NCBI GenBank assembly: GCA_041661545.1 | Contig: JBAZUH010000001.1 | Location: forward strand, 403,877-467,876 | Direction: 5' to 3' | Origin: Candidatus Staskawiczbacteria bacterium | Lineage (GTDB): Bacteria > Patescibacteriota > Minisyncoccia > Minisyncoccales > Staskawiczbacteraceae | Length of the DNA stretch: 64,000 nt | Shown: piece after piece, positions 2,195 to 57,578 of the stretch | How positions within the stretch are numbered: the stretch's first letter is position 1 | Layout: each line of letters starts with the position of its first letter | Made by a program: the position numbers and the translations under genes | Notes under the pieces: generated by a model | Seen by the model: the letters and a program-made list of their open reading frames with translations, nothing else | The model's database searches: none | What the model was told of the DNA's origin: nothing

Positions 2195-4183
2195 ATGATG
2201 AAATATATAGAATCCCATGTTCCCGGTGATGATTCCGAAGAAATTCCAGAGGCTACCATTCCGCACGCTGAAGAAACGCCAGAACTTGATAAGCCCAAAA
2301 GCGAACCAAGAGGACAAAACCTCAAAAAAGCCGAGGAGCTTAAAGAATTATTTATTAATTTAACTATTGATAAAGGGGAAGGAGATAAGAAAGAATCTGT
2401 CTTTTTTAGCGAAGAAGAAGCAATCGCCCTGTCTCAAAATGAAAGGTTGCAGGCGCATCTTTCAACAACCTTGCAACTATTTATTACCCAACGGTTTATT
2501 CAAAATACTGATAATCTAAAAGTATCTTTAACAGAATGGAAAAAAGCTGTGATGAAAGCACCACAACTTCTGCAACAAAAACCCGAGGCTCTCAACGCTA
2601 ATGCTGAGGAGTCTGCTGTAGCTTTGGGGATAACAAAACAACAGTTTATGGAAGCTGTGATGAAAAAACCATCGCTGTTGCAACAAAAACCCGAGACTCT
2701 CAACGCTAATGCCGAGAATTCTGCCGTAGCTTTGGGGATAACAAAACAACAGTTTATGGAAGCTGTGATGAAATCGCCACAATTATTGCAACAAAAACCC
2801 GAAACTCTCAACGCTAATACTGAAGAGTCTGCTGTAGCTTTGGGGATAACAAAACAACAGTTTGTAGAAGCTACGATGAAGGCACCATCACTATTACAAC
2901 GGAAACCCGAGACGCTCAACGCTAATGCCGAAGAGTCTGCTGTAGCTTTGGGAATAACAAAACAGCAGTTTGTAGAAGCTACGATGAAGGCACCAGCACT
3001 ATTACAACAAAAACCCGAGACGCTCAACGCTAATGCTGAGGAGTCTGCTATAGTTTTGGGAGTATCGAAACAACAGTTTGTAGAAGCGGCGATGAAAGCA
3101 CCACAACTTCTGTATCAAAAACCTGAAACTCTTAACGCCAATGCTGAGGAATCTGCTGTAGCTTTGGGAGTATCGAAACAGCAGTTTATAAAAACTGCGA
3201 TGAAGATGCCACCACTATTGCAACGGAAGCCCGAGGCTCTCAACGCCAATGCTGAAGAGTCTGCTGTAGCTTTGGGAGTATCGAAACAGCAGTTTATAAA
3301 AACTGCGATGAAGGCACCACCACTATTGCAACGGAAACCCGAGGCTCTCAACGCTAATGCTGAGGAGTCTGCTGTAGCTTTGGGAGTATCAAAACAGCAG
3401 TTTGTGAAAACTGCGATGAAGGCACCAGCACTATTACAACAAAAACCCGAGACGCTCAACGCTAATGCCGAAGAGTCTGCTGTAGCTTTGGGAATAACAA
3501 AACAACAGTTTGTGGAAGCTGTGATGAAGGCACCAGGGCTATTATACCAAAAACCCGAGACTCTTAACGCTAATGCTGAGGAGTCTGCCGAGGCTCTAGG
3601 TATAACCAAACAGCAGTTTATAGAAGCTGTGATGAAGATGCCACCACTATTGCAACGGAAGCCCGAGGCTCTCAACGCCAATGCTGAGGAGTCTGCTGTA
3701 GCTTTGGGAATAACAAAACAGCAGTTTGTAGAAGCTGTGATAAATATGCCAGCACTATTACAACAAAAATCCGAGACTCTTAAAAATAAATTTAATATAT
3801 ATGAAAATATGATAGACCGTCCGCTGGAGATTGTACTTAACCACCCGATCTTACTTGGTATGGCCCCTGAGAGAATACTAGGTAGCTATATTGTATGTAA
3901 AATAAATCATAAAGAATTGTCAGCGAGAAGTTTTATGCCTAATCCATTGACATCTGCGCATAAAATATTAGCCGAATCTGATTTTAAAAAATTTGAACTA
4001 GCCTACAACTATCTCAATGAATTATCAAGAAAAATTAGAGATAGGAGCAGAAGGGGGGGTAGCGAAACTGAAGTTTATAACGAAATGCTTAAATTTACAG
4101 AAAGATTTTTTGGCAAAAAGAACGAACCTATAACACAAGAGCAACTTAACACGTTTGAAAGATACATTGAAAAACATTTATAA
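2195..4183 (+). CDS. tandem 36-residue helical-repeat protein (mTERF-like repeat spacing), function unknown
   Basis: 662-aa ORF with an acidic N-terminus, 11 near-identical 36-aa repeats plus degenerate flanking repeats, and a roughly 130-aa unique C-terminal region. Confidence 0.85.
   Translation: MMKYIESHVPGDDSEEIPEATIPHAEETPELDKPKSEPRGQNLKKAEELKELFINLTIDKGEGDKKESVFFSEEEAIALSQNERLQAHLSTTLQLFITQRFIQNTDNLKVSLTEWKKAVMKAPQLLQQKPEALNANAEESAVALGITKQQFMEAVMKKPSLLQQKPETLNANAENSAVALGITKQQFMEAVMKSPQLLQQKPETLNANTEESAVALGITKQQFVEATMKAPSLLQRKPETLNANAEESAVALGITKQQFVEATMKAPALLQQKPETLNANAEESAIVLGVSKQQFVEAAMKAPQLLYQKPETLNANAEESAVALGVSKQQFIKTAMKMPPLLQRKPEALNANAEESAVALGVSKQQFIKTAMKAPPLLQRKPEALNANAEESAVALGVSKQQFVKTAMKAPALLQQKPETLNANAEESAVALGITKQQFVEAVMKAPGLLYQKPETLNANAEESAEALGITKQQFIEAVMKMPPLLQRKPEALNANAEESAVALGITKQQFVEAVINMPALLQQKSETLKNKFNIYENMIDRPLEIVLNHPILLGMAPERILGSYIVCKINHKELSARSFMPNPLTSAHKILAESDFKKFELAYNYLNELSRKIRDRSRRGGSETEVYNEMLKFTERFFGKKNEPITQEQLNTFERYIEKHL
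2579..3766 (+). repeat. 11 x 108-bp in-frame tandem repeat array
   Basis: Each unit starts aaacccgag (KPE). The period is exactly 108 bp from 2579 to 3766. Unit 12 (from 3767, KSETLKNKF) is degenerate. Confidence 0.95.
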
Positions 4184-7650: not shown

Positions 7651-9477
7651 TTATATTTTTTTATGAAGCTCTTTTGCTTGCTTAGTAAATTCTTTAATTA
7701 ACTCATCTCTTTTTTGCTCATTATCTTCGAGCTTCACTTCTCCAAATAGGTTACTTAAGTTGTTTCTCAATTCTATATCTTTTAACAAAGAAAGGCAAAG
7801 TTGAATTTCTTCTGAGTTGTCTTCTCCATATTCTACTTCAGCTTTTAGTGCTAATTCGTCTAATACATTTTTATATTCATTTTTAGCTTTGCCCACAGAG
7901 CTAGATATATCGGCAAAAATTGCTTCTGGGTCATTACCTCTTTGTTGCGCACTTGCCTTAATGCTGTTTATTAAATTTTTTGTTTCATCACAAAAAAGAC
8001 AGTGATGCGACTCTTCAATTAAATCTAAATTTTCTGGATTTTTTAAAACTAATGAAACTATTTTATCTTCTAATAATTTTTTGCGCCCTTCGGCTGTAAA
8101 ATTATTTTTATTAATTGGTAAAATCTTTTCTAGGCCAGCTTTATTTGTTAATTTATCATTACTTTGATTATTCTTTTTCCAATCATTAAAATCTGCTCTT
8201 ACATCTTCTTCTTTAACATTAAATATTTGAGATAGTTTTTGAAATTGCTTTGCTTGTTCAATTATGTTTGGAATTATATTTATTCTAGGATAAAGAGCAT
8301 ATTTTATTTCTTTTCTTCCCTGAGAAGTATCTTTATCAAACTTTAAAAGGGCAGAGTTAAAAGAAAAATCCATTATCTCTACAATAGTTTTTAATGATTC
8401 TTCCCAAATTTTAGGATTTTCTAAAATAATTTCTGCGGGGTCTTTTGCCCCTAAATAACTGTGTATTACTTTAATATTAAAACCTTGAAATATAGCTAAA
8501 TCAATTCCTCTTTTTGTTGCTGTGTCTCCGGCAGAATCCATATCAAAAGCTAAAACTAAATTATCTGTGTACCTTTTTAAAATGTTTAAATGCCTTTCTG
8601 TTAAAGCAGTGCCAGAAACTGCAACTGTATTTTCAAACCCTGCTTGCTGACACATTATTGCGTCTGTATTGCCTTCTGTTAAAACACACTGATTGTTCTT
8701 TCTAATAGCTAATTTTGCAAAATTTAATCCATAGAGAACATTGCTTTTATCGTAAAGTAGTGTCTGGGGCGTATTAATATATTTGGCTATTACTGCATCT
8801 TTTCCCCCTACGGGGGATCTCCCGAAGGGAGAAAAGACTCGGGCAGTAAAACCAACTACTTGCGAATTTAAATCAAAAATAGGAAAAATAATCCTTCCAC
8901 GAAATCTGTCGTAAGGGTTATTTCCCTTGTCAGATGGCACAGCTAAACCAGCTTTTACAATTTCTTGGCGATTGTATCCCCTGCCCACCAAAAAATCAGA
9001 TAGCCCCTGCCAAGTATCTGGAGAATAACCTAGTCTCCATTTTTTTATACTTTCTTCTATAATGCCTCTTTTCAACAAATACTCTTTGGCCTCTTTGCCA
9101 TAACCTGAACCTTCTAATTGTTTTTCAAAAAAAGAACAAGCTAGGTCGCAAATTTCATATAACCTTTTTCTTTCACTAGTTGCTTGAGGATTTTCGCGCT
9201 TTAATTCCACCCCTGCTTTATTAGCTAAAAGCCTTAAAGCATCTCCAAATTCAATGCCCTCAATTTCTTTTATAAATTCAAAAATGTCTCCACCCTTTCC
9301 ACAGCCAAAACATTTCCACATTTGCCTGCCCGGACTTACAAAAAAAGAGGGCCCTTTTTCAGAATGAAATGGGCAAATTCCTCTATAGTTAATTCCCGTT
9401 TTTGAAAGCTTAACATATGAACCCACAACATCTAAAACATTAAGCTTGCTCTTTATTTCTTCTATTTGTGAATCCAT
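7651..9477 (-). CDS. dnaG: DNA primase
   Basis: Zn ribbon CPFHSEKGPSF...CFGCG and TOPRIM motifs (EGNTDAI, DMDSAGD). Confidence 0.95.
   Translation of the reverse strand: MDSQIEEIKSKLNVLDVVGSYVKLSKTGINYRGICPFHSEKGPSFFVSPGRQMWKCFGCGKGGDIFEFIKEIEGIEFGDALRLLANKAGVELKRENPQATSERKRLYEICDLACSFFEKQLEGSGYGKEAKEYLLKRGIIEESIKKWRLGYSPDTWQGLSDFLVGRGYNRQEIVKAGLAVPSDKGNNPYDRFRGRIIFPIFDLNSQVVGFTARVFSPFGRSPVGGKDAVIAKYINTPQTLLYDKSNVLYGLNFAKLAIRKNNQCVLTEGNTDAIMCQQAGFENTVAVSGTALTERHLNILKRYTDNLVLAFDMDSAGDTATKRGIDLAIFQGFNIKVIHSYLGAKDPAEIILENPKIWEESLKTIVEIMDFSFNSALLKFDKDTSQGRKEIKYALYPRINIIPNIIEQAKQFQKLSQIFNVKEEDVRADFNDWKKNNQSNDKLTNKAGLEKILPINKNNFTAEGRKKLLEDKIVSLVLKNPENLDLIEESHHCLFCDETKNLINSIKASAQQRGNDPEAIFADISSSVGKAKNEYKNVLDELALKAEVEYGEDNSEEIQLCLSLLKDIELRNNLSNLFGEVKLEDNEQKRDELIKEFTKQAKELHKKI
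8804..8832. repeat. G+C-rich double hairpin embedded in frame in dnaG
   Basis: ccccc-tac-ggggg then tctccc-gaa-gggaga. Encodes FSPFGRSPVGGK at a position where E. coli DnaG is shorter (comparison from memory). Confidence 0.8.
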
Positions 9478-12126: not shown

Positions 12127-13137
12127 GTGAAAAAGAAAAATAAAACGCCACTGATTGGGCAACTTTTCCAGAAAGTTGCTCCTAAAATTGGAGCTACAGT
12201 AGTGATAGAGCCAAAATGGAAAATTGTTGGACAAATTACTTACAAAAATGGAAAAAAACGATATTTTCGAGGTTCTAGCCTTGACTTAAACTCACTTGGG
12301 GCTTCTGAAATAGCTCGAGACAAAGATTACGCCAATTTCTTCATGAAAACAATGGGATACCCCATTGTTCCTGGAGGAAAAACTTTCTACTCTAGCCAAT
12401 GGGCTAAGGCAATCGCAGAAACTGGTCGTGATATTCATGCGGGGTATAAGCACGCCGTTAAATTGGGCTTTCCGGTTATTGTGAAACCAAATGGTGGCAG
12501 CCAGGGATCTGGCGTTGCATTGGTCAAAAATAAACGTGAATTTTATCGAGCAATGCGCGAGATATTCAAGCACGACAGAATCGCTATCGTACAAAAACCC
12601 GTTAAAGGCAAAGATTATCGAATAGTCGTTCTAGATAATCGGGTTATCTCTGCCTACGAAAGAATACCCTTGAATATAATTGGGGATGGCTCTCATACCA
12701 TAAGACAGTTACTCCATAAAAAACAGCGAGAATTTACGGCTTCAGGCCGAGACACCAAGGTTGAGCCAAACGACCCTCGCATAGCAAATAAGCTAAAACG
12801 CCAAAAGATGAATATGAATTCGGTCCCCGGCAAGGGCGAACGAATCCATCTATTGGACAATGCCAACCTTTCAACGGGCGGAGATTCTATTGATGTTACC
12901 TCTACAATGCATCCTGATTTTAAACTCATCGCAATCAAACTAACCAAAGATATGGGATTACGTCTTTGTGGCGTTGACCTTATGATTGCCGATGATATAA
13001 CTAAAAAACCCGGCGAATATTGGGTTTTAGAAATCAATTCTGCGCCCGGGCTTGACCATTATGCCAAATCGGGCAGAGCTCAAGAAAAAATTGTTGGAAA
13101 ACTATACCTCGAGGTTCTCAAAAGTATGGGCGAATAG
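12127..13137 (+). CDS. ATP-grasp ligase (RimK / cyanophycin-synthetase / GshB-like)
   Basis: 336 aa with a GTG start. Has the DKDYANFFMKTMGYPIVPG, FPVIVKPNGGSQGSGV and VLEINSAPGL motifs of the ATP-grasp fold. Confidence 0.75.
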   Translation: MKKKNKTPLIGQLFQKVAPKIGATVVIEPKWKIVGQITYKNGKKRYFRGSSLDLNSLGASEIARDKDYANFFMKTMGYPIVPGGKTFYSSQWAKAIAETGRDIHAGYKHAVKLGFPVIVKPNGGSQGSGVALVKNKREFYRAMREIFKHDRIAIVQKPVKGKDYRIVVLDNRVISAYERIPLNIIGDGSHTIRQLLHKKQREFTASGRDTKVEPNDPRIANKLKRQKMNMNSVPGKGERIHLLDNANLSTGGDSIDVTSTMHPDFKLIAIKLTKDMGLRLCGVDLMIADDITKKPGEYWVLEINSAPGLDHYAKSGRAQEKIVGKLYLEVLKSMGE

Positions 13138-13147
13138 TCCGCTACCA

Positions 13148-13175
13148 ACCAAGACAAAAATCTTGGTCTTTTTTT
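13148..13175 (+). terminator. rho-independent terminator
   Basis: accaaga-caaaaa-tcttggt followed by cttttttt. Confidence 0.7.
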
Positions 13176-13182
13176 ATAGGTG

Positions 13183-13266
13183 CGGAGGAGGTGGGACTCG
13201 AACCCACGAGACCCGTGAAGGTCACAGCTTTCCAAGCTGTTGTAATGGCCACTATACGACTCCTCC
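13183..13266 (-). tRNA. tRNA-Ser (anticodon GGA)
   Basis: Hand-folded cloverleaf. Acceptor GGAGGAG/CTCCTCC, anticodon stem ACAGC/GCTGT with loop TTGGAAA, long variable arm, T arm GTGGG-TTCGAGT-CCCAC, discriminator G. No encoded CCA. Confidence 0.9.
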
Positions 13267-13282
13267 TTGTTTATTTTTTTGA

Positions 13283-13867
13283 TTACTTGCTATATTTTTC
13301 CGGATACTGAAGAAAAAACTTAAACAGAACGCCCAACGTCCTGTCTTCATTTATCTTTCCATCTTTACATAATTCTTTTACTTCATCAAATGATTTCCAC
13401 TCGGTATTTATTACTTCGCCAGTTTCAAGCTCCTGCCCAACTTCATTTTCTTCAAATTCATCCACAATAAAATAGAATAAATCCCAAATAACCGTTGCTC
13501 CCGATTTTGCAGTTGCATAGTGTTTTATGTTTTTAGCAACTAATCCGGTTTCCTCTCTGCACTCTTTTTTAGCAGCATTAGTGGCAAATAACAAAATATC
13601 TTCTGAAATATTTTTATTATATTCTTCTAAGGTGTCAAAAACTTTTCCGCCCGGCAAACGATAGTCGTAATCGTTCAATTCAGACCGAAATTCTTTAGAA
13701 ATTAAAATTTTGTTCTCTTTTACAATAATCAAACGTGTTCCCGGAGATCTGCGGGCAATTTCAAAAACAATGCTTTTATCACCAACCTTCATGGGTTGTT
13801 CTACAACCTCAAATATTCTTCCCTTATAAACAATTTTTTCCGGCCCATTTTTTTGTAAATTATCCAT
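13283..13867 (-). CDS. NUDIX hydrolase
   Basis: Nudix box GGKV...AAKKECREETGL. Confidence 0.85.
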   Translation of the reverse strand: MDNLQKNGPEKIVYKGRIFEVVEQPMKVGDKSIVFEIARRSPGTRLIIVKENKILISKEFRSELNDYDYRLPGGKVFDTLEEYNKNISEDILLFATNAAKKECREETGLVAKNIKHYATAKSGATVIWDLFYFIVDEFEENEVGQELETGEVINTEWKSFDEVKELCKDGKINEDRTLGVLFKFFLQYPEKYSK

Positions 13868-13874
13868 TTTAAGT

Positions 13875-13928
13875 TTATGTACTTCTTAATGCTTTTATTC
13901 TTTCTTCAACTGGTGGGTGGGTCACCCC
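13875..13928 (-). pseudogene. relic of the htpX 3' end (GVTHPPVEERIKALRST*)
   Basis: Translating the minus strand gives a second copy of the HtpX C-terminus, in AT-rich codons. It lies 110 bp from the functional copy at 13979-14035. Confidence 0.6.
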
Positions 13929-13958
13929 GAAAAAATTTGCTTCGCAAATTTTACGGGG
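13925..13958. repeat. hairpin module ccccga-stem/loop-ttttacgggg(caag)
   Basis: ccccgaaaaaatttgcttcgcaaattttacgggg. A homologous module lies inside ligA at 51156-51188. Confidence 0.8.
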
Positions 13959-13978
13959 CAAGACTCATTTCAACATAA

Positions 13979-14884
13979 TTATATATCCGTTCCACGAAGC
14001 GCACGTATCCGTTCTTCGACTGGTGGGTGGGTCATAAATAATTTTATAAACCAGCTTGTTTTTTGTTTTCCTTTATATGGCGAATTAATAAATAACGAAG
14101 CTGTTGCATCATTAGTAACTTTTAATGGAGTTGCATCTTGAGAAATTTTTTCTAATGCTCTAGCCAATCCTTCGGGATGTCTAGTAAGTAAAACAGCGCT
14201 TGCGTCGGCTAAAAATTCTCTTTTTCTTGAAATAGCTAATTGAACCAAAGTTGCTGCTATTGGAGCTAAAATTGCTGCAAAAATTCCAAGCACCATTAAA
14301 ATTACTCCTGCTTTTCCATTATCATCGTTAGACCCTCTGTTGCCTCCCCAAAAACTAACTCTCATAAACATATTAGCTAACATTGCAATGACTCCTGCTA
14401 AAATTGCTACAACTGTAGCTAATAGCATATCTTTGTTTCCAATATGCGACATTTCGTGAGCTAAAACTCCTTCTAGCTCTACTTTATCTAGCCGGTTTAA
14501 AAGCCCTTGTGTTACAGCTACAACCGCATGTTTTGCATTTCTACCTGTGGCAAAAGCATTTGGTTGCATTTCTGGAATAATATAAATTTTGGGAACCGGC
14601 AAACCTGCAGTTATACAAAGATTTTCTACAATATGATAAAGCTCTGGATTTTTATTATGTTCTACTGGTATGGCTTTATACATTGATAAAACAATTTTAT
14701 CTGACCACCAATAACTTCCAAAAGACATAAAAACGCTTAAAAATGTAGCAAAATATAAAATTGAGCTATCGTTTAACAAATAACTAAACAGCCAGCCTAA
14801 AGCTATAATAAAGACCAAAAACCCAGTTAATAGAAACCAGGTTTTTCTAGTGTTGGAACTTGCTTGTGTATATATTGTAGCCAT
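13979..14884 (-). CDS. htpX: zinc metalloprotease HtpX (M48)
   Basis: HEMSHIGNKDM zinc site, four TM segments and a THPPVEERI C-terminal motif. Confidence 0.9.
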   Translation of the reverse strand: MATIYTQASSNTRKTWFLLTGFLVFIIALGWLFSYLLNDSSILYFATFLSVFMSFGSYWWSDKIVLSMYKAIPVEHNKNPELYHIVENLCITAGLPVPKIYIIPEMQPNAFATGRNAKHAVVAVTQGLLNRLDKVELEGVLAHEMSHIGNKDMLLATVVAILAGVIAMLANMFMRVSFWGGNRGSNDDNGKAGVILMVLGIFAAILAPIAATLVQLAISRKREFLADASAVLLTRHPEGLARALEKISQDATPLKVTNDATASLFINSPYKGKQKTSWFIKLFMTHPPVEERIRALRGTDI

Positions 14885-14923
14885 ATTAACTATTTTATTT
14901 CATTCTATAATAAAATTATAATT

Positions 14924-16861
14924 TTACCACCCCCCTCCTCCTCCGCCACCACCGCCACCACCAGAAGAACCGCCTCCGCCACCACCAGAGCTAGATCCAG
15001 GAGGCGTAGAGGCAGATGCTATAGAACTTGAAAATCCAGAATTAAAGTTTGATAATGCTCCAGCTGTATATATTGGACCAGAAAACCATGCTGGATGATG
15101 GTCTTGCATTTGATTCTTATTAAAAATATCTGTAAATTGCTCGGCCCATTCATTTTCAACGCCTAAAGCTAAAGCATATGGTAAATATTTCTCAAAAAGT
15201 TCTGGTGTTCTCTCTGGAGGATTAAAAAAATTCATTCTATCTTTTTCTGTTACCGATAAAAACCATTTAAATCCTTTTACTTCTTCCACTAATCGCAATC
15301 CCATTTCTGTATATTGCCTTAATAAGAAATAAAAAATAATAGCCAATAAAATAACCACTGCTAGTAAAATTACAGTGCCCATAGAAGCCATACTATAAAC
15401 AATTGTAATTGCAAAAATTTCTCCAGCTAAAAATGGCAGAAAAAATAAACTTAGAAAAATTGCACCAAAAAGGTTTTTAATTTTATTTTTTTGGTTATTA
15501 AAAAACTTTTTCCACAACGCTGTTATTTGTCCAAAAATTACTACTATTCCAAAACTCCATCCAATCAACCAAACTATTATAAAAATTAAAGGAAAAATCA
15601 TACCAGCTTCACTGCTGTTAATAACCGACAATAATAATGGTATAAAAGATAAAACAATTCCTAAGAATAGCCAATTAATATTATTTGAAAAATAATTTTT
15701 GTCATACTCTTTCATCAAGGAAATGGTTAACTCCTCAGAAGCATCTTTTACTTCTAAAGTATAACCATCTAAATCAACTATTTCTTTTTTAACAAATAGT
15801 TGGGTCATCATATTTTTCTGAATTTTGTTTAAACTGCTATCTGGTTCTTTTACTTTTGTTATATAATAATGAACTTTCTTTTTATCAATTTTTATAAAAC
15901 CTTTAACTGCTAAATTAATAATTTCTGAAGTAAAACATTTGTTATCAAACCTTCTATTCACCAAATATCTAATTGATGAAGGAATCATTTTTGAAGGGGG
16001 TTTGTACATGGGTATAATACTTTTGGGTTTTGGATCTCTGCCAAATTTATTCCAAACGTACAAATAATAGAAAAAAACTAACAATAATCCAAATATCCCC
16101 AAAATAAATCCCAAATTATCTTGAAACCACCAAATTCTTTTCTGAAACAACGAAGGCTCAACAATTAATCCCTTGGGCCAACCAACAACAATTGTAAAAT
16201 CTTCTCCATTGTTTATTACTTGAGAATTTTTGAATTCAATTATACTTTTATTTCCTTCTGCATAGATGTTTGCTTGAGCGGGCACCCCCTTGCTCCCAAC
16301 ATAGCCCACATAAGAGGCTGTTGTTAGTTGATTTTTTACAGAATTAAAATCAAAGGGCAAAATAACTGTTGCGCTTGATTTAATTATAGGAAAACTCCAG
16401 TCACTACCAGTAACATTCCAATATAATTCGTCGTGATCTGAAAAAAATCCAATTTCCCTATTAACTCTATAAGAAAGCTTATAATCATAAACTCCAGGAT
16501 AAATTAAAACGTCAGAAGCTCCAATATATATTCTTATTCCATTTTTTAAATTTTCTGTGTGATAAGGTTCACTATTACCATTTCTTTGCACCCCAAGCAA
16601 ATCAAATTTAATCTTATAGTTATTGCCTAATTTATCTTTATATTTTGTTGGGAAATCTCTATATATACCATGCTCAATGGAATTGCCTGTTGCAATAACA
16701 CTTATTTCTTCTGTAACTAAAAGAGAACCAGATTTTTCAACGGTTATATTGCTAGAAAAATTAGTTATCTGCTCTTGATTATAGTTCTGAGCAAAAACAA
16801 AACTACCCGTTGCAAAACAGGATGCAACAACGACAAAGATTATGAATAATTTTTTGAACAT
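14924..16861 (-). CDS. DUF2207 domain membrane protein
   Basis: 645 aa with a signal/TM, a central TM cluster and a Gly/Ser-rich C-terminal tail. Located immediately downstream of lemA, as is typical for this pair. Confidence 0.8.
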   Translation of the reverse strand: MFKKLFIIFVVVASCFATGSFVFAQNYNQEQITNFSSNITVEKSGSLLVTEEISVIATGNSIEHGIYRDFPTKYKDKLGNNYKIKFDLLGVQRNGNSEPYHTENLKNGIRIYIGASDVLIYPGVYDYKLSYRVNREIGFFSDHDELYWNVTGSDWSFPIIKSSATVILPFDFNSVKNQLTTASYVGYVGSKGVPAQANIYAEGNKSIIEFKNSQVINNGEDFTIVVGWPKGLIVEPSLFQKRIWWFQDNLGFILGIFGLLLVFFYYLYVWNKFGRDPKPKSIIPMYKPPSKMIPSSIRYLVNRRFDNKCFTSEIINLAVKGFIKIDKKKVHYYITKVKEPDSSLNKIQKNMMTQLFVKKEIVDLDGYTLEVKDASEELTISLMKEYDKNYFSNNINWLFLGIVLSFIPLLLSVINSSEAGMIFPLIFIIVWLIGWSFGIVVIFGQITALWKKFFNNQKNKIKNLFGAIFLSLFFLPFLAGEIFAITIVYSMASMGTVILLAVVILLAIIFYFLLRQYTEMGLRLVEEVKGFKWFLSVTEKDRMNFFNPPERTPELFEKYLPYALALGVENEWAEQFTDIFNKNQMQDHHPAWFSGPIYTAGALSNFNSGFSSSIASASTPPGSSSGGGGGGSSGGGGGGGGGGGW

Positions 16862-19474: not shown

Positions 19475-19516
19475 AAACAGCGAGTGTTTTGCCACGTGGC
19501 AAAACACTCGCTGTTT
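19475..19516 (-). terminator. 42-bp perfect palindrome immediately downstream of groEL
   Basis: aaacagcgagtgttttgccac|gtggcaaaacactcgctgttt, centred on CACGTG. Confidence 0.7.
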
Positions 19517-24772: not shown

Positions 24773-26062
24773 ATGGAGAAGTTTAAATTTATCACTGGGC
24801 TAAACTTTGAGAAGCTCCCTAAAACATCGGGGGTGTATTTATTTTATGGACCAAACCCTAAGCCCTATGCTCTAAGCCCTATTTATATAGGAAAAGCTAT
24901 AAATATAAAAAGTAGGGTTAAAAATCATTTTCAACAGTCAAGCTACCGCGACAATCTTTTTATAGATAAAGTTAACAAAATTGGCTATATAGAAACTAAT
25001 TCAGAAATTGAGGCTTTAATTTTAGAAGCAAATTTAATTAAAAAACACCAGCCAAAATTTAATGTTGTATGGAAAGATGACAAAAACTATTTTTATGTGG
25101 CCATTGTCCAGAATAAAGATAAAATTCCTTTTGTCTACATAACCCACCAACCCTCCTTCGCTAAAGCTTCGGAAGGGCAAGCCCCAAAATACATTGGGCC
25201 TTTTGTTGAGGGCACAGCACTTAAAAAAACATTAAAATATTTGAGACGGGCATTTCCCTACTACACACAGGCAAAACATCCAAAAACTCAATGCACTTGG
25301 TGCCATTTGGGGCTTTGCCCCGGCCCTCACCCAGATTTACCTGCATATAAAAATAATCTTAAAAAATTAACCTTAATCCTTCAAGGAAAGCGAAGCGCTG
25401 TTTTAAATAGTTTAAAACGAGAGATGAGGCAATTTTCAAATGAACATAAATTTGAAGAAGCTGGAAAAATAAGAGACCGAATTTCTAATTTACAGCAAAT
25501 TATGTCTCACAGGGGCGTAATAAGCAACTCAAAAGAAATAGTCACAAATTTGACGGCCGTCAAAAATGCACCATTTTCTTCTTTGACCAAAATTCAGAAT
25601 GCACACAGAATTGAATGTTATGATATCTCAAATATACAAGGCAAATTTGCAACCGGATCTATGGTTGTATTTACTAATGGCGTAGCCGACAAGGGCCAAT
25701 ACAAAAAATTTAAAATAAAAATGGGGGATACTCCTAACGATATCGCCATGCTAAAAGAAGTTTTAACAAGAAGGTTTAATCACCCCGAGTGGAAGTATTC
25801 CGAAGTAATTTTAATTGATGGAGGAAAAGCTCAATTAAACATAGCCATAAAAGTTAAAAAACAATTTAATAAAATTATTCCATTAATTATTTCCATTGCA
25901 AAAGGCCGGCGAGAATTATTTATTGAAGGCAAAGACAAACCAATACCTCTAAAAAATTTGCCACGTGAAATTTATAACTTAGTTTTGCAATTAGACAACG
26001 AAGCCCACCGCTTTGCTGTTACTTATCATAAGAAGTTAAGAAAAAAATCTTTGTTGCAATAA
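24773..26062 (+). CDS. uvrC: excinuclease ABC subunit C (short form lacking the C-terminal HhH)
   Basis: GIY-YIG (GVYLFYG...IYIGKA), a UVR-like helix region (EHKFEEAGKIRDRI) and an RNase H-like endonuclease domain (IECYDISN). Ends at 429 aa. Confidence 0.9.
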   Translation: MEKFKFITGLNFEKLPKTSGVYLFYGPNPKPYALSPIYIGKAINIKSRVKNHFQQSSYRDNLFIDKVNKIGYIETNSEIEALILEANLIKKHQPKFNVVWKDDKNYFYVAIVQNKDKIPFVYITHQPSFAKASEGQAPKYIGPFVEGTALKKTLKYLRRAFPYYTQAKHPKTQCTWCHLGLCPGPHPDLPAYKNNLKKLTLILQGKRSAVLNSLKREMRQFSNEHKFEEAGKIRDRISNLQQIMSHRGVISNSKEIVTNLTAVKNAPFSSLTKIQNAHRIECYDISNIQGKFATGSMVVFTNGVADKGQYKKFKIKMGDTPNDIAMLKEVLTRRFNHPEWKYSEVILIDGGKAQLNIAIKVKKQFNKIIPLIISIAKGRRELFIEGKDKPIPLKNLPREIYNLVLQLDNEAHRFAVTYHKKLRKKSLLQ

Positions 26063-49512: not shown

Positions 49513-50604
49513 CTACCCTCTAATTCTAATATTTTGTAAAATTCCTAATGATATAAAGTTTCCTATTAAACCAGAACCTCCATAACTAACAAAAGGCAAA
49601 TAAATTCCCACAACGGGCAGTAAAGAAAGGTTCATTCCTATATTAATAAAAAATTGGGCAATTAAAATCATTGCAAAACCAGAAGCAAACAAGCGCGGAA
49701 AATTAGAGCTAGATTGAATTGCAGTTTTTAACACTCGCCACACCAAAGCACCATATGCCAAAAACAACGCCAAAACCCCCAACATTCCCCATTCTTCAGC
49801 TATAACAGAAAAAATAAAGTCTGTATGAGGCTCGGGCAAAAACCCATATTGCACCTGACTACCCTTGGCTAAGCCTTCTCCAAAAATTTGCCCCGAGCCA
49901 ATAGAAATTTTTGTTTGATTTTGACTCCACGAAGCTCCTAAATAATCATATGGCACTAAAAATGCTGTTACCCTTTCTTTTTGATAATCTTTTAATAAAA
50001 AAACCCATGCAAAACCAGCAACTAACAAAAAACACAAAGAAAGAATTACAAAGTGCTTTATTTTAATACCAGATATTAATAAAATGCCCAGCCATATTGA
50101 AACCAACACTGCTGTGCCCCCCAAGTCTGGCTTTGTAAAAACAAATATAGCTGGGATTAAAACATATAAGCCAGAATAAAAAATATGTCTAAATTTATAC
50201 ATTTCTACGTGACGCATTGAAAAATATTTTGCTAACAAAATTACCAAAACAATTTTGGCTGGTTCTATTGGGTCTAAAGACAATACACCTATTTTATACC
50301 ACCCCCTTGTTCCCCGGATAACTGGAGCAAAAAAATGAAGCCCTACAAGCAATAGTATACATATGGCGTAAAAAATTAAAATTATATAAGAATTATTTCT
50401 TAAAATTCTATAATCAAAAAAACTTACAATAAACATTATCAACAAGCCCGCTACAAAAAAAATAATTTGTTTAGTAAAATTTGAAAAATCTGCTTTAGCA
50501 ACTGCCACACTATAAAGTGCCAACAAACCAAAACACACCAGCACTACCGCCGGTAAAATTAACCCCCAATCTAGTTTTTTAATCTGACTTGATATTATAC
50601 CCAT
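49513..50604 (-). CDS. ftsW: SEDS family protein (FtsW/RodA)
   Basis: 363 aa, about 10 TM. Contains PEPHTDFIFSVIAEEWG and SYGGSG motifs. Confidence 0.9.
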   Translation of the reverse strand: MGIISSQIKKLDWGLILPAVVLVCFGLLALYSVAVAKADFSNFTKQIIFFVAGLLIMFIVSFFDYRILRNNSYIILIFYAICILLLVGLHFFAPVIRGTRGWYKIGVLSLDPIEPAKIVLVILLAKYFSMRHVEMYKFRHIFYSGLYVLIPAIFVFTKPDLGGTAVLVSIWLGILLISGIKIKHFVILSLCFLLVAGFAWVFLLKDYQKERVTAFLVPYDYLGASWSQNQTKISIGSGQIFGEGLAKGSQVQYGFLPEPHTDFIFSVIAEEWGMLGVLALFLAYGALVWRVLKTAIQSSSNFPRLFASGFAMILIAQFFINIGMNLSLLPVVGIYLPFVSYGGSGLIGNFISLGILQNIRIRG

Positions 50605-52655
50605 TATTTGATTAATTCTAAGAATTGTTGTTCAGTTAAAATTGTTACACCAAGTTGGCGGGCGCGGTCGGCCTTGCTTCCTGGTTCTGAACCAACTATA
50701 ACATAACTAGTATTTTTTGAAACAGATTCTGCGGTGTCGCCACCCAATTCTCTTATTTTTGCTTTTGCTTGGTCACGGCTCATTGTTTCTAGGCTTCCAG
50801 TTAAGACGAAGGTTTTGCCTACTAATTTCGCCGAAGCACCGGCTGAGGCGCCCGGTCGAATGACCGGGTCAATTTTCACAAATTTTTCTAATTTATCTAT
50901 AAATCTAGTATTATCTTTGTCGGCAAACCATTCATAAATTGATTTTGAAACAACTGGCCCAATATCTAAAATTGCTTCAAAATCTTCTAATTTTGCATCT
51001 TTAATTTTTTTAATATTACCAAAATGTTTTGCCAAATCAATTGCAGTTTCTTCGCCAACATTTCTAATGCCCAAAGCATAAATAAACTTTGCTAAAGAAA
51101 TTTCTCTTTTTTCTTGTATTGATTTTATTAAATTTTCTGCCGATTTTTCTGCAAACCCCGATACAAAAGCCTCCGGCTTTTTACGGGGCAAGCCGTCTTC
51201 TAAATTCACGATGTCTCCCACTTTAAGCTCAAATAAGTCCGAGGAATCATTAACTAAGCCATAATCAAATAGTTTATCAATAATTTTGGGGCCCAAGCCA
51301 TCTATATTAAAAGCTGTGCGCGAAACAAAATGATAAAAATTTCTTCTTTGTTTGGCAATACATTTTACATTTGGGCACCGCAAAATTGCTTCACCTTCTA
51401 ATTTTACCAGCTTTGCCGAACAGCTAGGGCACTTTTCTGGCATTTTAAAAGTTTTTTCATGACCAGTTCTTAGTTCTGGCAAAACTTTTATAACATTTGG
51501 AATAACATCTCCCGCCCTTCCCACTATTACAGTATCTCCAATTTTTAAACCTAGTCTTTTAATTTCGTCTTCGTTGTGCAAAGTTGCCCTTGTTATTGTA
51601 ATTCCAGTTACTTGCACGGGCTCTAGCACTGCAACAGGCGTAATGGCCCCTGTTCTGCCCACCTGGACCCTTACATCTACAACTTTAGTAGTTGCCTCAG
51701 CTTGCGGAAATTTATAAGCTATAGCCCCCCTTGGCGCCTTGCCAACAACTCCTAATTCTTCAAAAATTTTATTATTATTTATTATTACCACCACGCCATC
51801 AATTTCATAATCTAATTTTTCTCTTTCTTGTATCCAATGCTCTCTAAATTCAAAAACTTCTTTTAGCGATTTGCAATATTTATTATGTTTATTAGTTTTA
51901 AACCCTAATTCTTTTAATATTTTATGTTTTTCTTCGTGAGTAACAACTTCGTTGCTAATTAAATCATAAGCAAAAGAATCTAACTTTCTACCTGATGTTA
52001 TTTTGGGGTCTAACTGCCTAACCGAACCTGCTGCGATATTTCTTGGATTAGCATAAACTGGCAAACCTTTTGCTTGTTGCTCTTTATTTATTCTATTAAA
52101 TTCTTTTTTAGTAATAAAAACCTCACCCCTCACAACAAGTTGTTCGGGAATTTTCAATTTTAAATTTTCAATTTTCAATGGAACTGCCTCAACTGTTTTT
52201 AAATTTTGAGTGATATCTTCACCAACACTGCCGTCCCCCCTAGTAGAACCTGTTATAAAATTTCCATTTTTATAAATTAGCTCAATGGCTAAGCCATCAA
52301 TTTTTAATTCACAGTAATAATTTATATTGGATTTTTCTTTTTCGGGCACTAATTTTATAAATCTTTCTTGCCAATCTTGCATATCTTCTTGCGAGAAAGC
52401 ATCATTAAAAGAAAGCATTTTATGCAAATGTTTTATTTTTTTAAATTCTTTTAAAGGCTTGCCCCCAATTCTCTGAGTTGGCGAATCTGAAGTTATTAGC
52501 TCAGGATATTGTTGCTCTAAATCAAAAAGTTCCTTTTTCAAGGAGTCTAGTGCAAAATCAGAAATTTCTTGCTTATCTAAAACATGATAAAGATAACGAT
52601 GATGATTTATCGTTTCTCTTAATTTTTTTACTCTTTGCTCAATATCTTGTTTCAT
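50604..52655 (-). CDS. ligA: NAD-dependent DNA ligase
   Basis: Adenylation motif CELKIDGLA, a Zn finger (CPSC...C), HhH repeats and a C-terminal BRCT (GKTFVLTGSL). Confidence 0.97.
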   Translation of the reverse strand: MKQDIEQRVKKLRETINHHRYLYHVLDKQEISDFALDSLKKELFDLEQQYPELITSDSPTQRIGGKPLKEFKKIKHLHKMLSFNDAFSQEDMQDWQERFIKLVPEKEKSNINYYCELKIDGLAIELIYKNGNFITGSTRGDGSVGEDITQNLKTVEAVPLKIENLKLKIPEQLVVRGEVFITKKEFNRINKEQQAKGLPVYANPRNIAAGSVRQLDPKITSGRKLDSFAYDLISNEVVTHEEKHKILKELGFKTNKHNKYCKSLKEVFEFREHWIQEREKLDYEIDGVVVIINNNKIFEELGVVGKAPRGAIAYKFPQAEATTKVVDVRVQVGRTGAITPVAVLEPVQVTGITITRATLHNEDEIKRLGLKIGDTVIVGRAGDVIPNVIKVLPELRTGHEKTFKMPEKCPSCSAKLVKLEGEAILRCPNVKCIAKQRRNFYHFVSRTAFNIDGLGPKIIDKLFDYGLVNDSSDLFELKVGDIVNLEDGLPRKKPEAFVSGFAEKSAENLIKSIQEKREISLAKFIYALGIRNVGEETAIDLAKHFGNIKKIKDAKLEDFEAILDIGPVVSKSIYEWFADKDNTRFIDKLEKFVKIDPVIRPGASAGASAKLVGKTFVLTGSLETMSRDQAKAKIRELGGDTAESVSKNTSYVIVGSEPGSKADRARQLGVTILTEQQFLELIK
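51156..51188. repeat. hairpin module ccccga-stem/loop-ttttacgggg(caag) in frame in ligA
   Basis: ccccgatacaaaagcctccggctttttacgggg. Encodes LPRKKPEAFVSG. Confidence 0.8.
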
Positions 52656-52657: not shown

Positions 52658-53572
52658 TTAATTACTACAATAAAACTCAGCAATATCGGATTTATTTTCA
52701 TTGCCCCCGTTATCTGTAGCTATAAGATAAACCCAATACGATGTATTATTATCCATGTTTGACCAAGGCTTGCTATAATTTCCATCTCCCAGCGACTTCA
52801 ATGTTAATTCAGACGTCTCGCTATCTACTATGTACATCTTAACGGTGTTTACTCCATCCTTATCATACACATCGGCTGAAACTGTATTATCGCCTCCGCA
52901 ATCAATTTGAAAATTACTTATCGTTGGTTCTATATTTTTTGTTTCTATAACTATTTGAATTTGCCTACCAGCTCCACCGTAAAAACCCTTTGAACTAATT
53001 TCAAATTTATCAACATCCCCCGCACTATAAACTCTGGCTTCTGTAGAATAAGATATATCGTCGTCAGAGCTGTTTGTATCGCCAGCGTTGATAACAGAAC
53101 TAAAAGAAATTGTACAATCGTCACAAACTTCTGGATTGCAACCAATAGTAGGATTGTTGTCCCCTGGTTGCGGAGATTCAAAACCATTGTTGGGCTGGCA
53201 ATAAATACTATGCTCTGTGGGCGAGGTGCTGTTAGGATCAGACTTACAAGCAGTATTATAATTATTGCTTATATCATACATAGAGCATAAACCTCTTTCT
53301 GCTTTTTTGCCATTTGTTATTGTTGGCCTAACATTCCAATCATAATAAAGAACTTTTTCAATTCCGCTATCAGCGGCGTAAAGTCCAATTACAGAATTGC
53401 CTATATTTCTTATAACTTTTATTTCGCTGTATAAAAGCGCGCTTATAGACAAAACCACAGATAAAATAATTATCATTATAAACAGCGTGATAATTAATGA
53501 AACGCCTGCCTGCGCAGGCAGGCCATTTTTATTTCTTTTTAATTTTTCTTTATTGTTCTGCATCATATACAT
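52658..53572 (-). CDS. PilX-like minor pilin / pilus-associated protein
   Basis: N-terminal hydrophobic helix GVSLIITLFIMIIILSVVLSISALLYSEI, as in the PilX N-domain. The start could be at M3/M4. Last gene of the minor-pilin set. Confidence 0.6.
   Translation of the reverse strand: MYMMQNNKEKLKRNKNGLPAQAGVSLIITLFIMIIILSVVLSISALLYSEIKVIRNIGNSVIGLYAADSGIEKVLYYDWNVRPTITNGKKAERGLCSMYDISNNYNTACKSDPNSTSPTEHSIYCQPNNGFESPQPGDNNPTIGCNPEVCDDCTISFSSVINAGDTNSSDDDISYSTEARVYSAGDVDKFEISSKGFYGGAGRQIQIVIETKNIEPTISNFQIDCGGDNTVSADVYDKDGVNTVKMYIVDSETSELTLKSLGDGNYSKPWSNMDNNTSYWVYLIATDNGGNENKSDIAEFYCSN
53504..53523. repeat. G+C palindrome gcctgcctgcgcaggcaggc in frame in the PilX-like gene
   Basis: Encodes GLPAQAGV just before the TM helix. 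Twin of 29756-29775. Confidence 0.85.
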
Positions 53573-54233
53573 TAAGATTTCTTTGCGAAACAGTTGATTG
53601 AATTATTCTATCTGGTTGCTGGCTGTCTCCCGCCACTTTTATATTAAAAACAATAGTTAAGCGTGGTTGAATTTTATCTTTATTTGAAGCTCCGCATTGT
53701 TCTGGGCCCTCGCAACTAGCAGAATTACTAAAAGTAGATCCTCCAGAGCCATTAATAGAAAATTTAATTTCATTTATTTCTAAATTTAAAGAAGTTATTT
53801 CTGTGGCATTTGCACTTTCGTTTTCTAAAGGAACCTTACGTCCAGAACTACCTTTTAATTCTTTTAAAACAGGGCCATTGGCGCCAGACACATCTAAAAA
53901 GAATTCTTGGCAATCTCCAGTTGATTGATTCAAAAATCTTACACCTCTAAATAAGTTTTCTTCTGTATCGGGCCTAGTTAACAAATAAATATATCCATTA
54001 GGAACACAGTCACCGTTTGGCGACATGTCTGTGGCTGCCATTCTTAAAGCTTTAGACATATATTCTTCTACATAACTAATTTGGTTAATAAGTTGTTGTT
54101 CGGCTAAAACTTTTTTCTGGTTTTGAACAACAGAAATAAAAATACTAATAGCAGCTCCAACAATAAACAAAAACACGCCCATAACCACAATTACCTCTAT
54201 TAATGTAAACCCTTTATTATTTTTTATATTCAT
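53550..54233 (-). CDS. type IV minor pilin (PilW-like)
   Basis: Prepilin signal KG|FTLIEVIVVMGVFL. Confidence 0.75.
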   Translation of the reverse strand: MNIKNNKGFTLIEVIVVMGVFLFIVGAAISIFISVVQNQKKVLAEQQLINQISYVEEYMSKALRMAATDMSPNGDCVPNGYIYLLTRPDTEENLFRGVRFLNQSTGDCQEFFLDVSGANGPVLKELKGSSGRKVPLENESANATEITSLNLEINEIKFSINGSGGSTFSNSASCEGPEQCGASNKDKIQPRLTIVFNIKVAGDSQQPDRIIQSTVSQRNLNVYDAEQ

Positions 54234-54254
54234 TATTTAAATAAACTAAATTTT

Positions 54255-55220
54255 CTATGGATTAGAAGCAACTTGAATTGTAATTGTGTCAGAGTCTCCA
54301 CGATCGGCAGAGGTTACCGTAATTTCTGCATAATCCCCAGATGGAGCTTCGTCCGAAACTGTAACTAATCCTTGATCACTAACGGTAACTTCTGGATTAT
54401 TTGACGACCACGATACGTCTTTAATAGTTGCATTAGCGGGATATATTTTAGAATAAAATTGTTTTGCTGATGTGGTGCCCTTGCCAATTATCTCACTCAC
54501 CGTGGTACTTCCTGGATATGCAACGTCAAAACCATCTACAATTTCTACGCTTTTTACGAAAATTTTAGTATTATACCAATTATAAAGCGTGCCCTCTGTT
54601 ATAATGCAATTTGAAACACCAGCCGGGCAGTAATCTGGACCGTCGTTAGGACAACATTTATTAGCTAAAACCCCTTCAGATAAAACTGTTGATTTTCTGT
54701 CCCAAGATACTTGAGATTTTACTTTTATAATATGATAACCTTGCGATAATGGAGCATTATCAACATCTTGAATTGGAATAACTGTAATTCTTCTTTGAAA
54801 TTTTGTTTCTGTGCCAACAGTTTCGCTATAAAAACCATTTGTATCTAAACGTAAATAATCATTTCTAGTTGCACTAGATAGTTTAGTTGATGTATAGTCC
54901 GCCTTACATTTTACGTTGTCTTGCTTACAATCAACGGGGTAGTTATAACCTTCTAGCGTAAGACCATCAACCCATGAGTAGGATGACCCCAGCTCGTTAG
55001 AAGCATCAGCAGAGTCCATATTTAGCCAATTGGTATCTCTTATATTTCTAACTATTTCCATGCCTTCTTGGGCTAAATAAGTTGCCGTAAGTCTATCTGA
55101 TGCATCAGACGTTAAAATAATAACTATTGAAAGAGCATTAAAAATTCCTATTACAGCAATAGATAAAATAAATATAGAAATTGCAAGTTCTATAATTGTA
55201 AAACCCTTTTGTTTATTCAT
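54255..55220 (-). CDS. type IV minor pilin (PilV-like) with a C-terminal Ig-like (Big_2-type) domain
   Basis: Prepilin signal KG|FTIIELAISIFIL. C-terminal VSWSSNNPEVTVSDQGLVTV...ITVTSADRGDSDTITIQV. Confidence 0.75.
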   Translation of the reverse strand: MNKQKGFTIIELAISIFILSIAVIGIFNALSIVIILTSDASDRLTATYLAQEGMEIVRNIRDTNWLNMDSADASNELGSSYSWVDGLTLEGYNYPVDCKQDNVKCKADYTSTKLSSATRNDYLRLDTNGFYSETVGTETKFQRRITVIPIQDVDNAPLSQGYHIIKVKSQVSWDRKSTVLSEGVLANKCCPNDGPDYCPAGVSNCIITEGTLYNWYNTKIFVKSVEIVDGFDVAYPGSTTVSEIIGKGTTSAKQFYSKIYPANATIKDVSWSSNNPEVTVSDQGLVTVSDEAPSGDYAEITVTSADRGDSDTITIQVASNP

Positions 55221-55224
55221 TTTT

Positions 55225-55860: not shown

Positions 55861-55869
55861 ATTTATAAA

Positions 55870-56718: not shown

Positions 56719-56729
56719 TAAATTATTTT

Positions 56730-56773
56730 ATCATTTTTTCCGCCCAACACAAAGACCCCAACAAAAAACACCC
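56730..56773. repeat. 44-bp direct repeat, left copy (flanks the PaaX-like cassette)
   Basis: atcattttttccgcccaacacaaagaccccaacaaaaaacaccc. About 40 of 45 positions match 57619-57663. Confidence 0.85.
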
Positions 56774-56808
56774 TTCAAAAGATACCAGCAAAAAGCTACT
56801 AATAAAAA

Positions 56809-56844
56809 TAGGCGCGTTTTTGACGGCCGTCAAAAACGCGCCTA
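56809..56844. repeat. 36-bp perfect palindrome downstream of the PaaX-like gene
   Basis: taggcgcgtttttgacgg|ccgtcaaaaacgcgccta. Confidence 0.9.
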
Positions 56845-56859
56845 AAATTTAAAACTATT

Positions 56860-57438: not shown

Positions 57439-57494
57439 ATTTTTTACAATCTTTTGTTAACTATACTTTTATTATAGCACCAGCCATAACAATT

Positions 57495-57578
57495 AAAATA
57501 GTAGCGTTTTTGGCGTTCGCCAAAAACGCTACTATTTTAATAAAGTTTTTTATGTTATTCGGTAAAAACGCTACTATT
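57495..57578. promoter_or_regulatory. 44-bp palindrome plus a third half-site upstream of the PaaX-like gene
   Basis: aaaatagtagcgtttttggcg/ttcgccaaaaacgctactatttt at 57495-57538, and taaaaacgctactatt again at 57563-57578. Confidence 0.6.

Follow-up and report, generated by a model that had tools for sequence, protein, structure and literature searches.

The stretch of DNA analyzed here, referred to as the window, is a 64,000-nucleotide (nt) segment of the 738-kb genome of a Candidatus Staskawiczbacteria bacterium (assembly GCA_041661545.1, contig JBAZUH010000001.1, positions 403,877 to 467,876 of the forward strand). Our subject is the 3′ end of its htpX gene, which codes for an M48 metalloprotease: the gene reads into a short unit that terminates in a hairpin module and is followed by a second copy of the htpX end. 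The features of this locus, with positions counted along the window, are:

13979..14884, minus strand: htpX (M48 metalloprotease), the working gene (open reading frame, ORF; Pfam Peptidase_M48, 2.5e-33)
14034-13925, minus strand: complete unit of 110 nt, made up of a carried segment (14034-13970) and a 45-nt module (13969-13925)
13970..14034, minus strand: carried segment (cargo) of 65 nt, comprising the htpX end TGACCCACC...GATATATAA (56 nt including the stop codon) and a 9-nt trailer, ttatgttga
13925..13969, minus strand: conserved module of 45 nt, AATGAGTCTT and then the hairpin GCCCCGTAAAATTTGC-GAA-GCAAATTTTTTCGGGG
13875..13924, minus strand: probable native htpX end, a relic, with the DNA sequence TGACCCACCCACCAGTTGAAGAAAGAATAAAAGCATTAAGAAGTACATAA encoding ..THPPVEERIKALRST* and starting straight after the module GGGG
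13283..13867, minus strand: NUDIX hydrolase gene (context; ORF and Pfam), starting 7 nt past the relic stop
13182..13266, minus strand: tRNA-Ser(GGA) gene (context), which in many relatives lies directly after htpX in either orientation

The working HtpX protein ends ...MTHPPVEERIRALRGTDI* (DNA: ATG ACC CAC CCA CCA GTC GAA GAA CGG ATA CGT GCG CTT CGT GGA ACG GAT ATA TAA), and the last 56 nt of its gene (14034-13979) are part of the inserted unit. The protein is 100% identical to a Candidatus Staskawiczbacteria protein, although a look-up of contigs by the exact HtpX protein returned none, and the 120 closest relatives, at 80-86% identity, end ...THPP[IV]EERI[KR]ALRGM[ED][IV]*. A sequence-only reading of this stretch had described two htpX ends 110 nt apart, a hairpin between them and a 7-nt gap from the relic stop to the NUDIX start (13867), and all of these are present at the place it gave. 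The core that it described as shared by the two copies is recovered by a repeat search as a direct repeat of 29 nt, 90% identical and spaced by exactly 110 nt. Relic and working copy agree at 26/29 nt beside the junction, the near-identity covering the 23-29 nt that adjoin the module, and then diverge abruptly by about 50%, a pattern that would fit a crossover point. As read from the sequence, 6 nt of the working copy have been deleted from the relic; the relic is an intact and typical htpX end, with 27 nt identical to the working ends of the related loci L011 and L015. The hairpin of the module has a CCCC/GGGG base, a bulged 3′ arm and a GCGAAGC loop, and folds at -21.5 kcal/mol (z = -3.8 versus shuffles). 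Its exact sequence occurs a single time in the window, and R1, a covariance model built from 25 modules (see below), scores the module at 56.4 bits (E = 7e-16). In an Rfam covariance search of 13000-15000, with matches up to E = 10 listed, the tRNA was the sole pass and the module matched no family. An intrinsic terminator was considered for the hairpin and rejected, as it has no T-tract, TGACCC follows it and the terminator scan did not call it.

The unusual G+C-rich codons that the sequence-only reading noticed in the working end stand out against the rest of the window. GTC, CGG, CGT, GCG and ACG each make up 3-7% of their own synonymous family in the window genes, and the 13-codon working end falls in the lowest 0.36% among all 13-codon windows when these are ranked by codon rarity for the genome, whereas the codons of the relic are typical of the genome. 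Across 14 htpX loci of the same architecture, the G+C content at third codon positions (GC3) shows a summed squared deviation from the gene body of 0.36 for the relic versus 1.15 for the working end, with L216, L218 and L231 as the clear-cut cases. The combination of an intact, young relic and copies that are about half different beyond the core requires a xenologous working end. The sequence contrasts support the view that the working htpX end was imported and that the relic is native. Thus, the proposal of the sequence-only reading, that the replacement coding end came with a small element and the native end stayed behind as a relic, is backed by the foreign codons, GC3, the operon-tight 7-nt spacing of the relic to the next gene and the abrupt loss of identity. 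Single-copy htpX ends were also inspected for an enrichment of CGN arginine codons as a trace of past replacement, and none was found overall (odds ratio 1.13, p = 0.58). As a separate observation, the arginine codons among the last 12 codons of htpX in the related loci L001-L080 show a tendency to be either CGN throughout or AGR throughout, whatever the gene body uses (e.g., L001 and L009, with 2 CGN and 0 AGR in the end and 1 CGN and 9 AGR in the body), which may be a trace of past end replacements.

The comparison at htpX drew on 80 species-representative GTDB loci (L001-L080), about 68 of which could be analyzed for a duplicated end. Most of the 80 loci show one uninterrupted end, as the sequence-only reading expected of related genomes, and downstream DNA that is highly variable, often with tRNA-Ser either way round. 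A duplicated htpX end is found in 4/~68 loci (L008, L032, L077 and L065), on the same strand and 100-171 nt apart, in hosts whose HtpX is just 59-77% identical to that of the window, and a homologous spacer and hairpin accompany it in 3 of the 4. Duplicated ends in such distant hosts, three of them with a homologous module, indicate that the phenomenon is recurrent and tied to the module. The arrangement that the sequence-only reading named as contrary to its proposal, i.e., two copies lacking the hairpin, is represented by one decayed case (L065). Past the htpX stop of L022 (~1420-1450), at the expected distance of 65 nt, lies a decayed module (tcgagctgaAATGAGCTTGCACCCGAC) that has neither hairpin nor relic and looks like an old eroded unit.

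Further units beside duplicated gene ends, for which the sequence-only reading proposed a search, proved to be widespread, in many genes and at both 3′ and 5′ ends. A metagenome scan with an 18-nt pattern (AATGAGTCTYGCCCCGTA) returned 43 loci, of which 34 carry a module with a hairpin, the other 9 being G+C-rich chance matches without one. Over 30 assemblies, produced independently by different projects, show this architecture; hence, the window duplication is not an assembly artefact, a point on which that reading had asked for reassurance. At least nine housekeeping genes have the module at one of their ends; they were recognized by Pfam as htpX (four sites), lepA-like and typA-like GTPases, tsaD (two sites), GAPDH, uvrB, a carbamoyltransferase and gatB, and by ORF translation as tuf and an S10-like gene. 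The 3′-end targets are htpX, at four slightly different sites, and one small basic protein; at the 5′-end targets (lepA-like, typA-like, both tsaD sites, GAPDH, uvrB and carbamoyltransferase), the module has the opposite orientation. The layout is constant and runs from the gene body through the working terminal segment, a short trailer, the module and the second copy of the terminal segment to the other flank. The modules share the consensus (WTRM)AATGAGTCTY followed by a bulged hairpin, GCCCC-GTAG...CTAC-Y-GGGG, and the full units are 107-171 nt long and contain no ORF. With the covariance model, we also recovered a hairpin-only subfamily with the left motif ..gcRCC TGCCCCGT, located at the 3′ ends of tuf and the S10-like gene, at the 5′ end of gatB and in gene interiors. 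Among 2.9 million viral contigs, the 18-nt pattern gave 0 matches, and a gapped pattern, GCCCCGTA-N(12-42)-GGGGTGAC, gave 120, all of them chance matches in G+C-rich phages. No published description of the family was found in the literature searched, which lay mostly outside subscription journals, and the module family is apparently undescribed.

Several other repeats were seen in the same loci. Further hairpin-only modules lie within ORFs of other genes in L077 (451-503, minus strand), L232 (4019-4060) and L225 (4577-4611). In L009, two identical copies, each of ~75 nt, of a different hairpin repeat (GCGAGCCAAATAGATTTTTTCGAGGAGAGGGTGCCCCGTAGAGAGGCTCTCCCCGCAGAAAAAACTATTCGGCGAGCA) occupy spacers near htpX (2297 and 2953, minus strand); this repeat has GCCCCGTAG in common with the module but differs in architecture. 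Hairpins of the form CCCCGTTAGAAAT...ATTTCTAACGGGGTGA at L032 (~4300) and L064 (~4093), one directly after a tRNA gene and one a tandem pair, may be further relatives of the module. About 70 nt past the lepA relic of L238 (~7700-7770), there is additional sequence that the related L206 lacks; it includes ATGAGT and then a small hairpin (GAAGTCCGACTTC), and may represent a module of an array that is older and has decayed.

The units obey strict regularities at their junctions. The second copy begins at offset 0 after the module GGGG with T as its first base, and the first base of the working copy is also T, preceded by A or G and never by C. In the window, the cargo begins with T after A, the R|T junction matching that of 25 other units. 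The spacing between the first base of the working copy and AATGAG behaves as a ruler, measuring 65, 66, 67, 68 and 69 nt in 3, 4, 16, 2 and 1 units, respectively; this 65-69-nt range accommodates 26/26 units with a detectable duplication (76 offsets scanned) and holds whatever the gene or the position of the gene end, the window cargo measuring 65 nt. The polarity is equally strict, with the gene body on the AATGAG side throughout, at at least 11 independent sites and with 0 exceptions. The identity between copies peaks beside the module and stops sharply (L210, 36/36; L207, 22/22; L238, 63/64; window, 26/29). The hairpin has a GCCCC...GGGG base followed by T in 25/25 aligned modules. Its conserved parts are GCCCC/GGGG, GTAG/CTAC and a 1-nt bulge (Y) between CTAC and GGGG, and compensatory changes affect six interior stem pairs in roughly half of the 25 member sequences. 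Loops of the C-GNA-G type, mostly GCGAAGC, are displayed on the top strand by 15/38 modules, with the complementary form in 1; d(GCGAAGC) is an exceptionally stable DNA mini-hairpin. This loop asymmetry, together with the opposite orientation to transcription at 3′ and 5′ ends, points to a hairpin that would work as a folded, single-stranded top strand of DNA (ssDNA) rather than as RNA.

The family also bears signs of mobility. Complete units occur at places unrelated to their cargo in two contigs, each straight after the GGGG of another module: in L223 (577-685), a 67-nt GTPase-type cargo and its module lie between a hairpin-only module and a gatB relic, and in L228 (3483-3598), a carbamoyltransferase-type cargo and its module lie in the fusA-tuf spacer. 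Neither has a flanking duplication. Two-unit arrays are present in L235, L239 and L210. Modules are also nested: in L008 and L222, one sits within the loop of another module, and in L243, one sits within a relic. Together, the units at unrelated sites, the arrays and the nesting mark the cargo and module as a discrete cassette with its joining point at GGGG|T. The hairpin-only copies are simple insertions without duplication (e.g., in ligA and in the L243 relic), some of them in frame. The best documented is a copy in the window:

51155..51192, minus strand: hairpin-only copy CTTGCCCCGTAAAAAGCCGGAGGCTTTTGTATCGGGGT, in frame in ligA (50604-52655); model R1, 31.6 bits, E = 5e-8

Relative to Escherichia coli LigA, this copy adds 39 nt, i.e., the 13 residues DGLPRKKPEAFVS. 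Among LigA relatives, 103/111 are empty (..NLE RFAEKSA..) and 8/111 are filled, all of the latter encoding LPR from CTTGCCCCGT. A DNA-level comparison covered empty and filled alleles, and the filled ones are scattered among closer empty relatives.

With the architecture, polarity, ruler, hairpin covariation, spread over at least nine genes, arrays, units at unrelated sites, hairpin-only insertions and foreign working end established, we propose that 14034-13925 probably belongs to a Patescibacteria (candidate phyla radiation, CPR) family of miniature, non-autonomous mobile cassettes that carry replacement gene ends. A unit would be placed immediately 5′ of the homologous segment of its target gene, at an R|T junction; by virtue of this placement, the gene reads into the carried end and stays intact, and the displaced native end would persist as a relic directly behind the hairpin GGGG. 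A putative trans-acting enzyme, for which integron-integrase-like and HUH-type candidates were considered, could recognize the folded top strand as ssDNA, cut or copy units out and join them at GGGG|T. Once in a conserved gene, a unit might then spread between lineages by recombination, and we lean toward this two-step scheme of enzymatic joining and subsequent spread with somewhat better than even confidence. The carried segment would supply the homology for movement between conserved genes of different lineages, with the gene body as the left homology arm, the relic as the right one and the abrupt end of identity marking the exchange point. Such a spread accounts for mosaic codon usage, patchy distribution and restriction to highly conserved motifs (THPP, AHIDHGK, GIETSCD and INGFGRIG). 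For the window, we picture that the unit reached htpX by recombination with DNA of another lineage already bearing it, with one exchange point within the 23-29-nt near-identical core, and import by an exchange there would leave foreign codons in the working end and native ones in the relic. The window codes for RecA, SSB and FtsK (35.6-40.6 kb) and for a type IV pilus/competence-like cluster (53550-63924) with pilins bearing the N-methylation motif, a prepilin peptidase, a PilC-like protein, two T2SSE ATPases and PilO, which makes DNA uptake and homologous recombination plausible. It is also possible, if somewhat doubtful, that the family represents a new class of mobile DNA, in which a trans-acting enzyme would read a folded ssDNA hairpin, cut or copy it out along with a measured 64-67 nt of any 5′ flank and rejoin the unit at GGGG|T.

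Several points weigh against the cassette proposal. To our knowledge, nothing described explains a carried segment fixed at 65-69 nt; in the hairpin-only subfamily, the carried segment varies, from about 20 to 56 nt. The proposal does not account for the first capture of a new gene end, and no "proto" state, with a module just outside a gene and no relic, was seen. No autonomous copy was found, and 0/59 ORFs of the window (64 kb of the 738-kb genome) are a transposase, integrase, reverse transcriptase or HUH protein by Pfam. The GC3 comparison relies on 8-12 codons per locus, with several loci ambiguous, and no close empty htpX allele was available for this genome, the best relative being 86% identical. 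Finally, the metagenome scan used one 18-nt pattern, and its sample is therefore biased to one subfamily.

The nearest competitor to the cassette proposal is ordinary transposition of a 45-52-nt module with a long (~64-67 bp) target-site duplication, whereby the copies start out identical and then diverge, and nothing is carried in. Its appeal lies in the constant 65-69-nt length and in near-perfect, full-length duplications such as those of L238 (63/64 nt) and L204 (60/64 nt). A symmetric duplication, however, predicts both module orientations, whereas the gene body lies on the AATGAG side at all of the independent sites; moreover, identity between the copies ends abruptly rather than decaying evenly, divergence at equal rates does not produce the foreign-codon working end next to an intact, typical relic seen in the window, and the units of L223 and L228 carry the cargo of one gene at unrelated places with no flanking duplication. 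We consider this explanation unlikely. A still smaller chance is left to the locus being the scar of a large, integrase-bearing element (a phage or island) at the htpX 3′ end, which lost its interior so that attL and attR fused around the hairpin. The sequence-only reading had drawn the analogy to integrative elements, and with regard to outcome it holds: a restored end, a displaced native end and a common core are what integrase elements leave at tRNA and gene 3′ ends, and the hairpin loop of L008 contains extra DNA. The analogy fails on the machinery, as neither an integrase nor a long version was found in ~34 loci or the window, and on the hairpin-only copies, which insert in frame without duplication. 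Independent deletions would, furthermore, not yield an identical layout of 65-69 nt and module in nine genes and dozens of lineages, and the 2.9 million viral contigs hold 0 pattern matches.

Two further accounts confine the event to the locus itself. In the first, the htpX 3′ region was duplicated locally in tandem, the copies then diverged or recombination between them was selected against, and the hairpin is simply the terminator of the gene. This would make sense of direct repeats 110 nt apart and of a hairpin downstream of the stop codon; yet the sequence after the first copy (the spacer) is unrelated to that after the second, the copies contrast in codons, the hairpin has neither a T-tract nor a terminator call, most relatives lack both hairpin and duplication, and the module is also found within ligA and, in opposite orientation, ahead of gene starts. 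Since the family recurs in other genes, this account is effectively refuted, and we grant it hardly any probability. The least probable of all is a pair resembling a diversity-generating retroelement (DGR), with the relic as template repeat and the gene end as variable repeat followed by the hairpin. The variable repeats of DGRs are followed by a hairpin in the Bordetella phage system, and, as read from the sequence, 12/16 of the window differences fall at A positions of the relic, both of which speak for such a pair. The A-bias is nevertheless a property of the window locus only, being reversed at L218 and L065; the differences are mostly synonymous recodings (AGA to CGG or CGT, TTA to CTT), 5′ ends have the layout too, with non-coding DNA as part of it, and the 64-kb window holds no reverse transcriptase. 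For the family as a whole, the DGR-like reading is refuted. RNA-guided homing of the TnpB or CRISPR-associated transposon (CAST) type, with the relic as guide, was also discarded: instead of a short guide, the relic spans a whole homologous gene end, and since the same core survives in the working copy, that copy would itself be targeted.

If the cassette proposal is correct, selfish DNA in the streamlined CPR genomes (<1 Mb) lives in the ends of essential genes and brings its own spare part, which would newly explain the persistence of mobile DNA in genomes with almost no non-coding space. The strict polarity and the 65-69-nt ruler would point to a measuring enzyme of a kind not known among transposases and integrases, which could yield a tool for DNA insertion; a categorically new insertion mechanism is, in our estimation, conceivable but not the expected outcome. 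Were the new class of mobile DNA considered above to be real, the measured flank would be a built-in homology arm and a replacement terminus at once, with which essential genes are invaded across distant CPR lineages and the host is not killed, in effect a nuclease-free homing on a 110-nt scale. The mosaic gene termini between lineages would matter for phylogenies, for codon-based detection of transfer and for gene calling in metagenomes, since relics and in-frame hairpins are at present unannotated, and the units could serve as natural markers of DNA exchange among uncultivated bacteria.

In the neighborhood of the locus, genes for LemA, DUF2207 and HtpX proteins are clustered, and the DUF2207 membrane protein gene upstream of htpX (14924-16861, minus strand) encodes a C-terminus with a run of ~25 Gly/Ser (...SSGGGGGGSSGGGGGGGGGGGW). 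The closest homologues of the NUDIX gene product are 58-78% identical and, by their record labels, are from Gracilibacteria, other Patescibacteria and DPANN archaea. They have unrelated gene neighborhoods, none beside htpX, and the NUDIX gene looks horizontally mobile. None of the 80 related loci has a NUDIX gene within 3 kb of its htpX, and the contexts of the closest NUDIX homologues (72-78%) are unrelated and contain no modules. Elsewhere in the window, a 662-residue protein (2195-4183, plus strand) combines an mTERF domain (5e-31), from a mainly organellar (eukaryotic) family and hence unusual for a bacterium, with a cyclic-nucleotide-binding domain. The window also features three perfect, nearly loopless palindromes of 36-50 nt (19475-19516, 56809-56844 and 57492-57541) and an imperfect one (25533-25580), with a CAAAAACGC-like motif in common (e.g., TAGGCGCGTTTTTGACGG/CCGTCAAAAACGCGCCTA). 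The three perfect ones occupy short spacers right after gene ends, e.g., 12 nt past groEL, and could be bidirectional terminators or another repeat family.

Known systems were compared with the family. TIGR (tandem interspaced guide RNA) arrays are tandem 36-nt units with box C/D motifs beside a Tas (Nop-domain) gene (PMC12045711), and were set aside: the copies described here are dispersed single units, their stem arms covary and there is no Tas gene in the window. The marks of a miniature inverted-repeat transposable element (MITE) are absent: there are no terminal inverted repeats (AATGAGTCTY is on one side only) and no short fixed duplication, the full units having a one-sided 65-69-nt copy. 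Closer in habit are the Rickettsia palindromic elements (RPEs), short palindromic repeats that lie in frame inside essential protein genes of reduced genomes and have no transposase of their own (PMC10969869). Like RPEs and intragenic MITEs, the window ligA copy is an in-frame palindromic repeat in a conserved ORF, absent from 103/111 relatives and from E. coli. RPEs are ~100-150 bp long, and the review describes no duplicated gene end (PMC10969869). Unlike them, most copies of the present family are at gene termini, with a fixed-length carried end and strict polarity, and the likeness drawn here is one of layout. Short bulged hairpins with a conserved foot including GTAG, a presumed strand specificity for ssDNA and non-autonomy are shared with the repetitive extragenic palindromic (REP) sequences and REPINs, which are mobilized by REP-associated tyrosine transposases (RAYT, Y1 HUH), and with IS200/IS605 elements. 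REPs, however, are extragenic, their GTAG is unpaired 5′ of the stem and their flanks are not duplicated, whereas in the module GTAG is paired within the stem (GTAA in the window) and the copies are genic; derivatives of IS200/IS605 have end hairpins that differ from each other and a target tetra- or pentanucleotide that is fixed, neither of which is seen here.

The attC site of integrons is a structured hairpin of variable sequence with a conserved base, an unpaired stem base, G|T joining at its 3′ foot and one active strand. The present units resemble integron cassettes, whose attC properties are well established, in ending with a hairpin, in a joining point at G|T, in forming head-to-tail arrays and in landing beside another hairpin (L223 and L228), and the module likewise has an imperfect hairpin with an extrahelical base and a variable interior (the 1-nt Y bulge and the six compensatory pairs). 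The attC core sites RYYYAAC/GTTRRRY are absent from the hairpin base of the 25 aligned modules (GCCCC...GGGG then T), and no intI, attI or integron platform was found in the window, whose 59 ORFs include no recombinase. The units further differ from integrons in their much shorter hairpin (35-45 nt), in a cargo of ~67 nt of host gene end instead of an ORF and in the dispersal of copies over housekeeping gene ends. As in integrase islands and prophages, the element carries a copy of its target from the crossover to the gene end and displaces the native end to the far side, and its orientation flips between 3′-end and 5′-end targets; unlike these, it measures 110 nt rather than kilobases, one hundredth of their size, contains no recombinase gene, carries a fixed length and uses one module for many targets. 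In fungal mitochondrial genes such as atp6 of Allomyces, a mobile ORF for a homing endonuclease brings a foreign C-terminal segment and leaves the native one as a pseudogene. The window locus parallels this case in its hybrid gene, its recoded xenologous terminus, the native terminus downstream and a predicted spread via conserved-gene homology, and departs from it in that the Allomyces elements encode an endonuclease, whereas the units here have a conserved hairpin and no ORF. Overall, we rate the family as akin to both the small non-autonomous palindromic elements and the integrative elements that restore the gene ends they enter.

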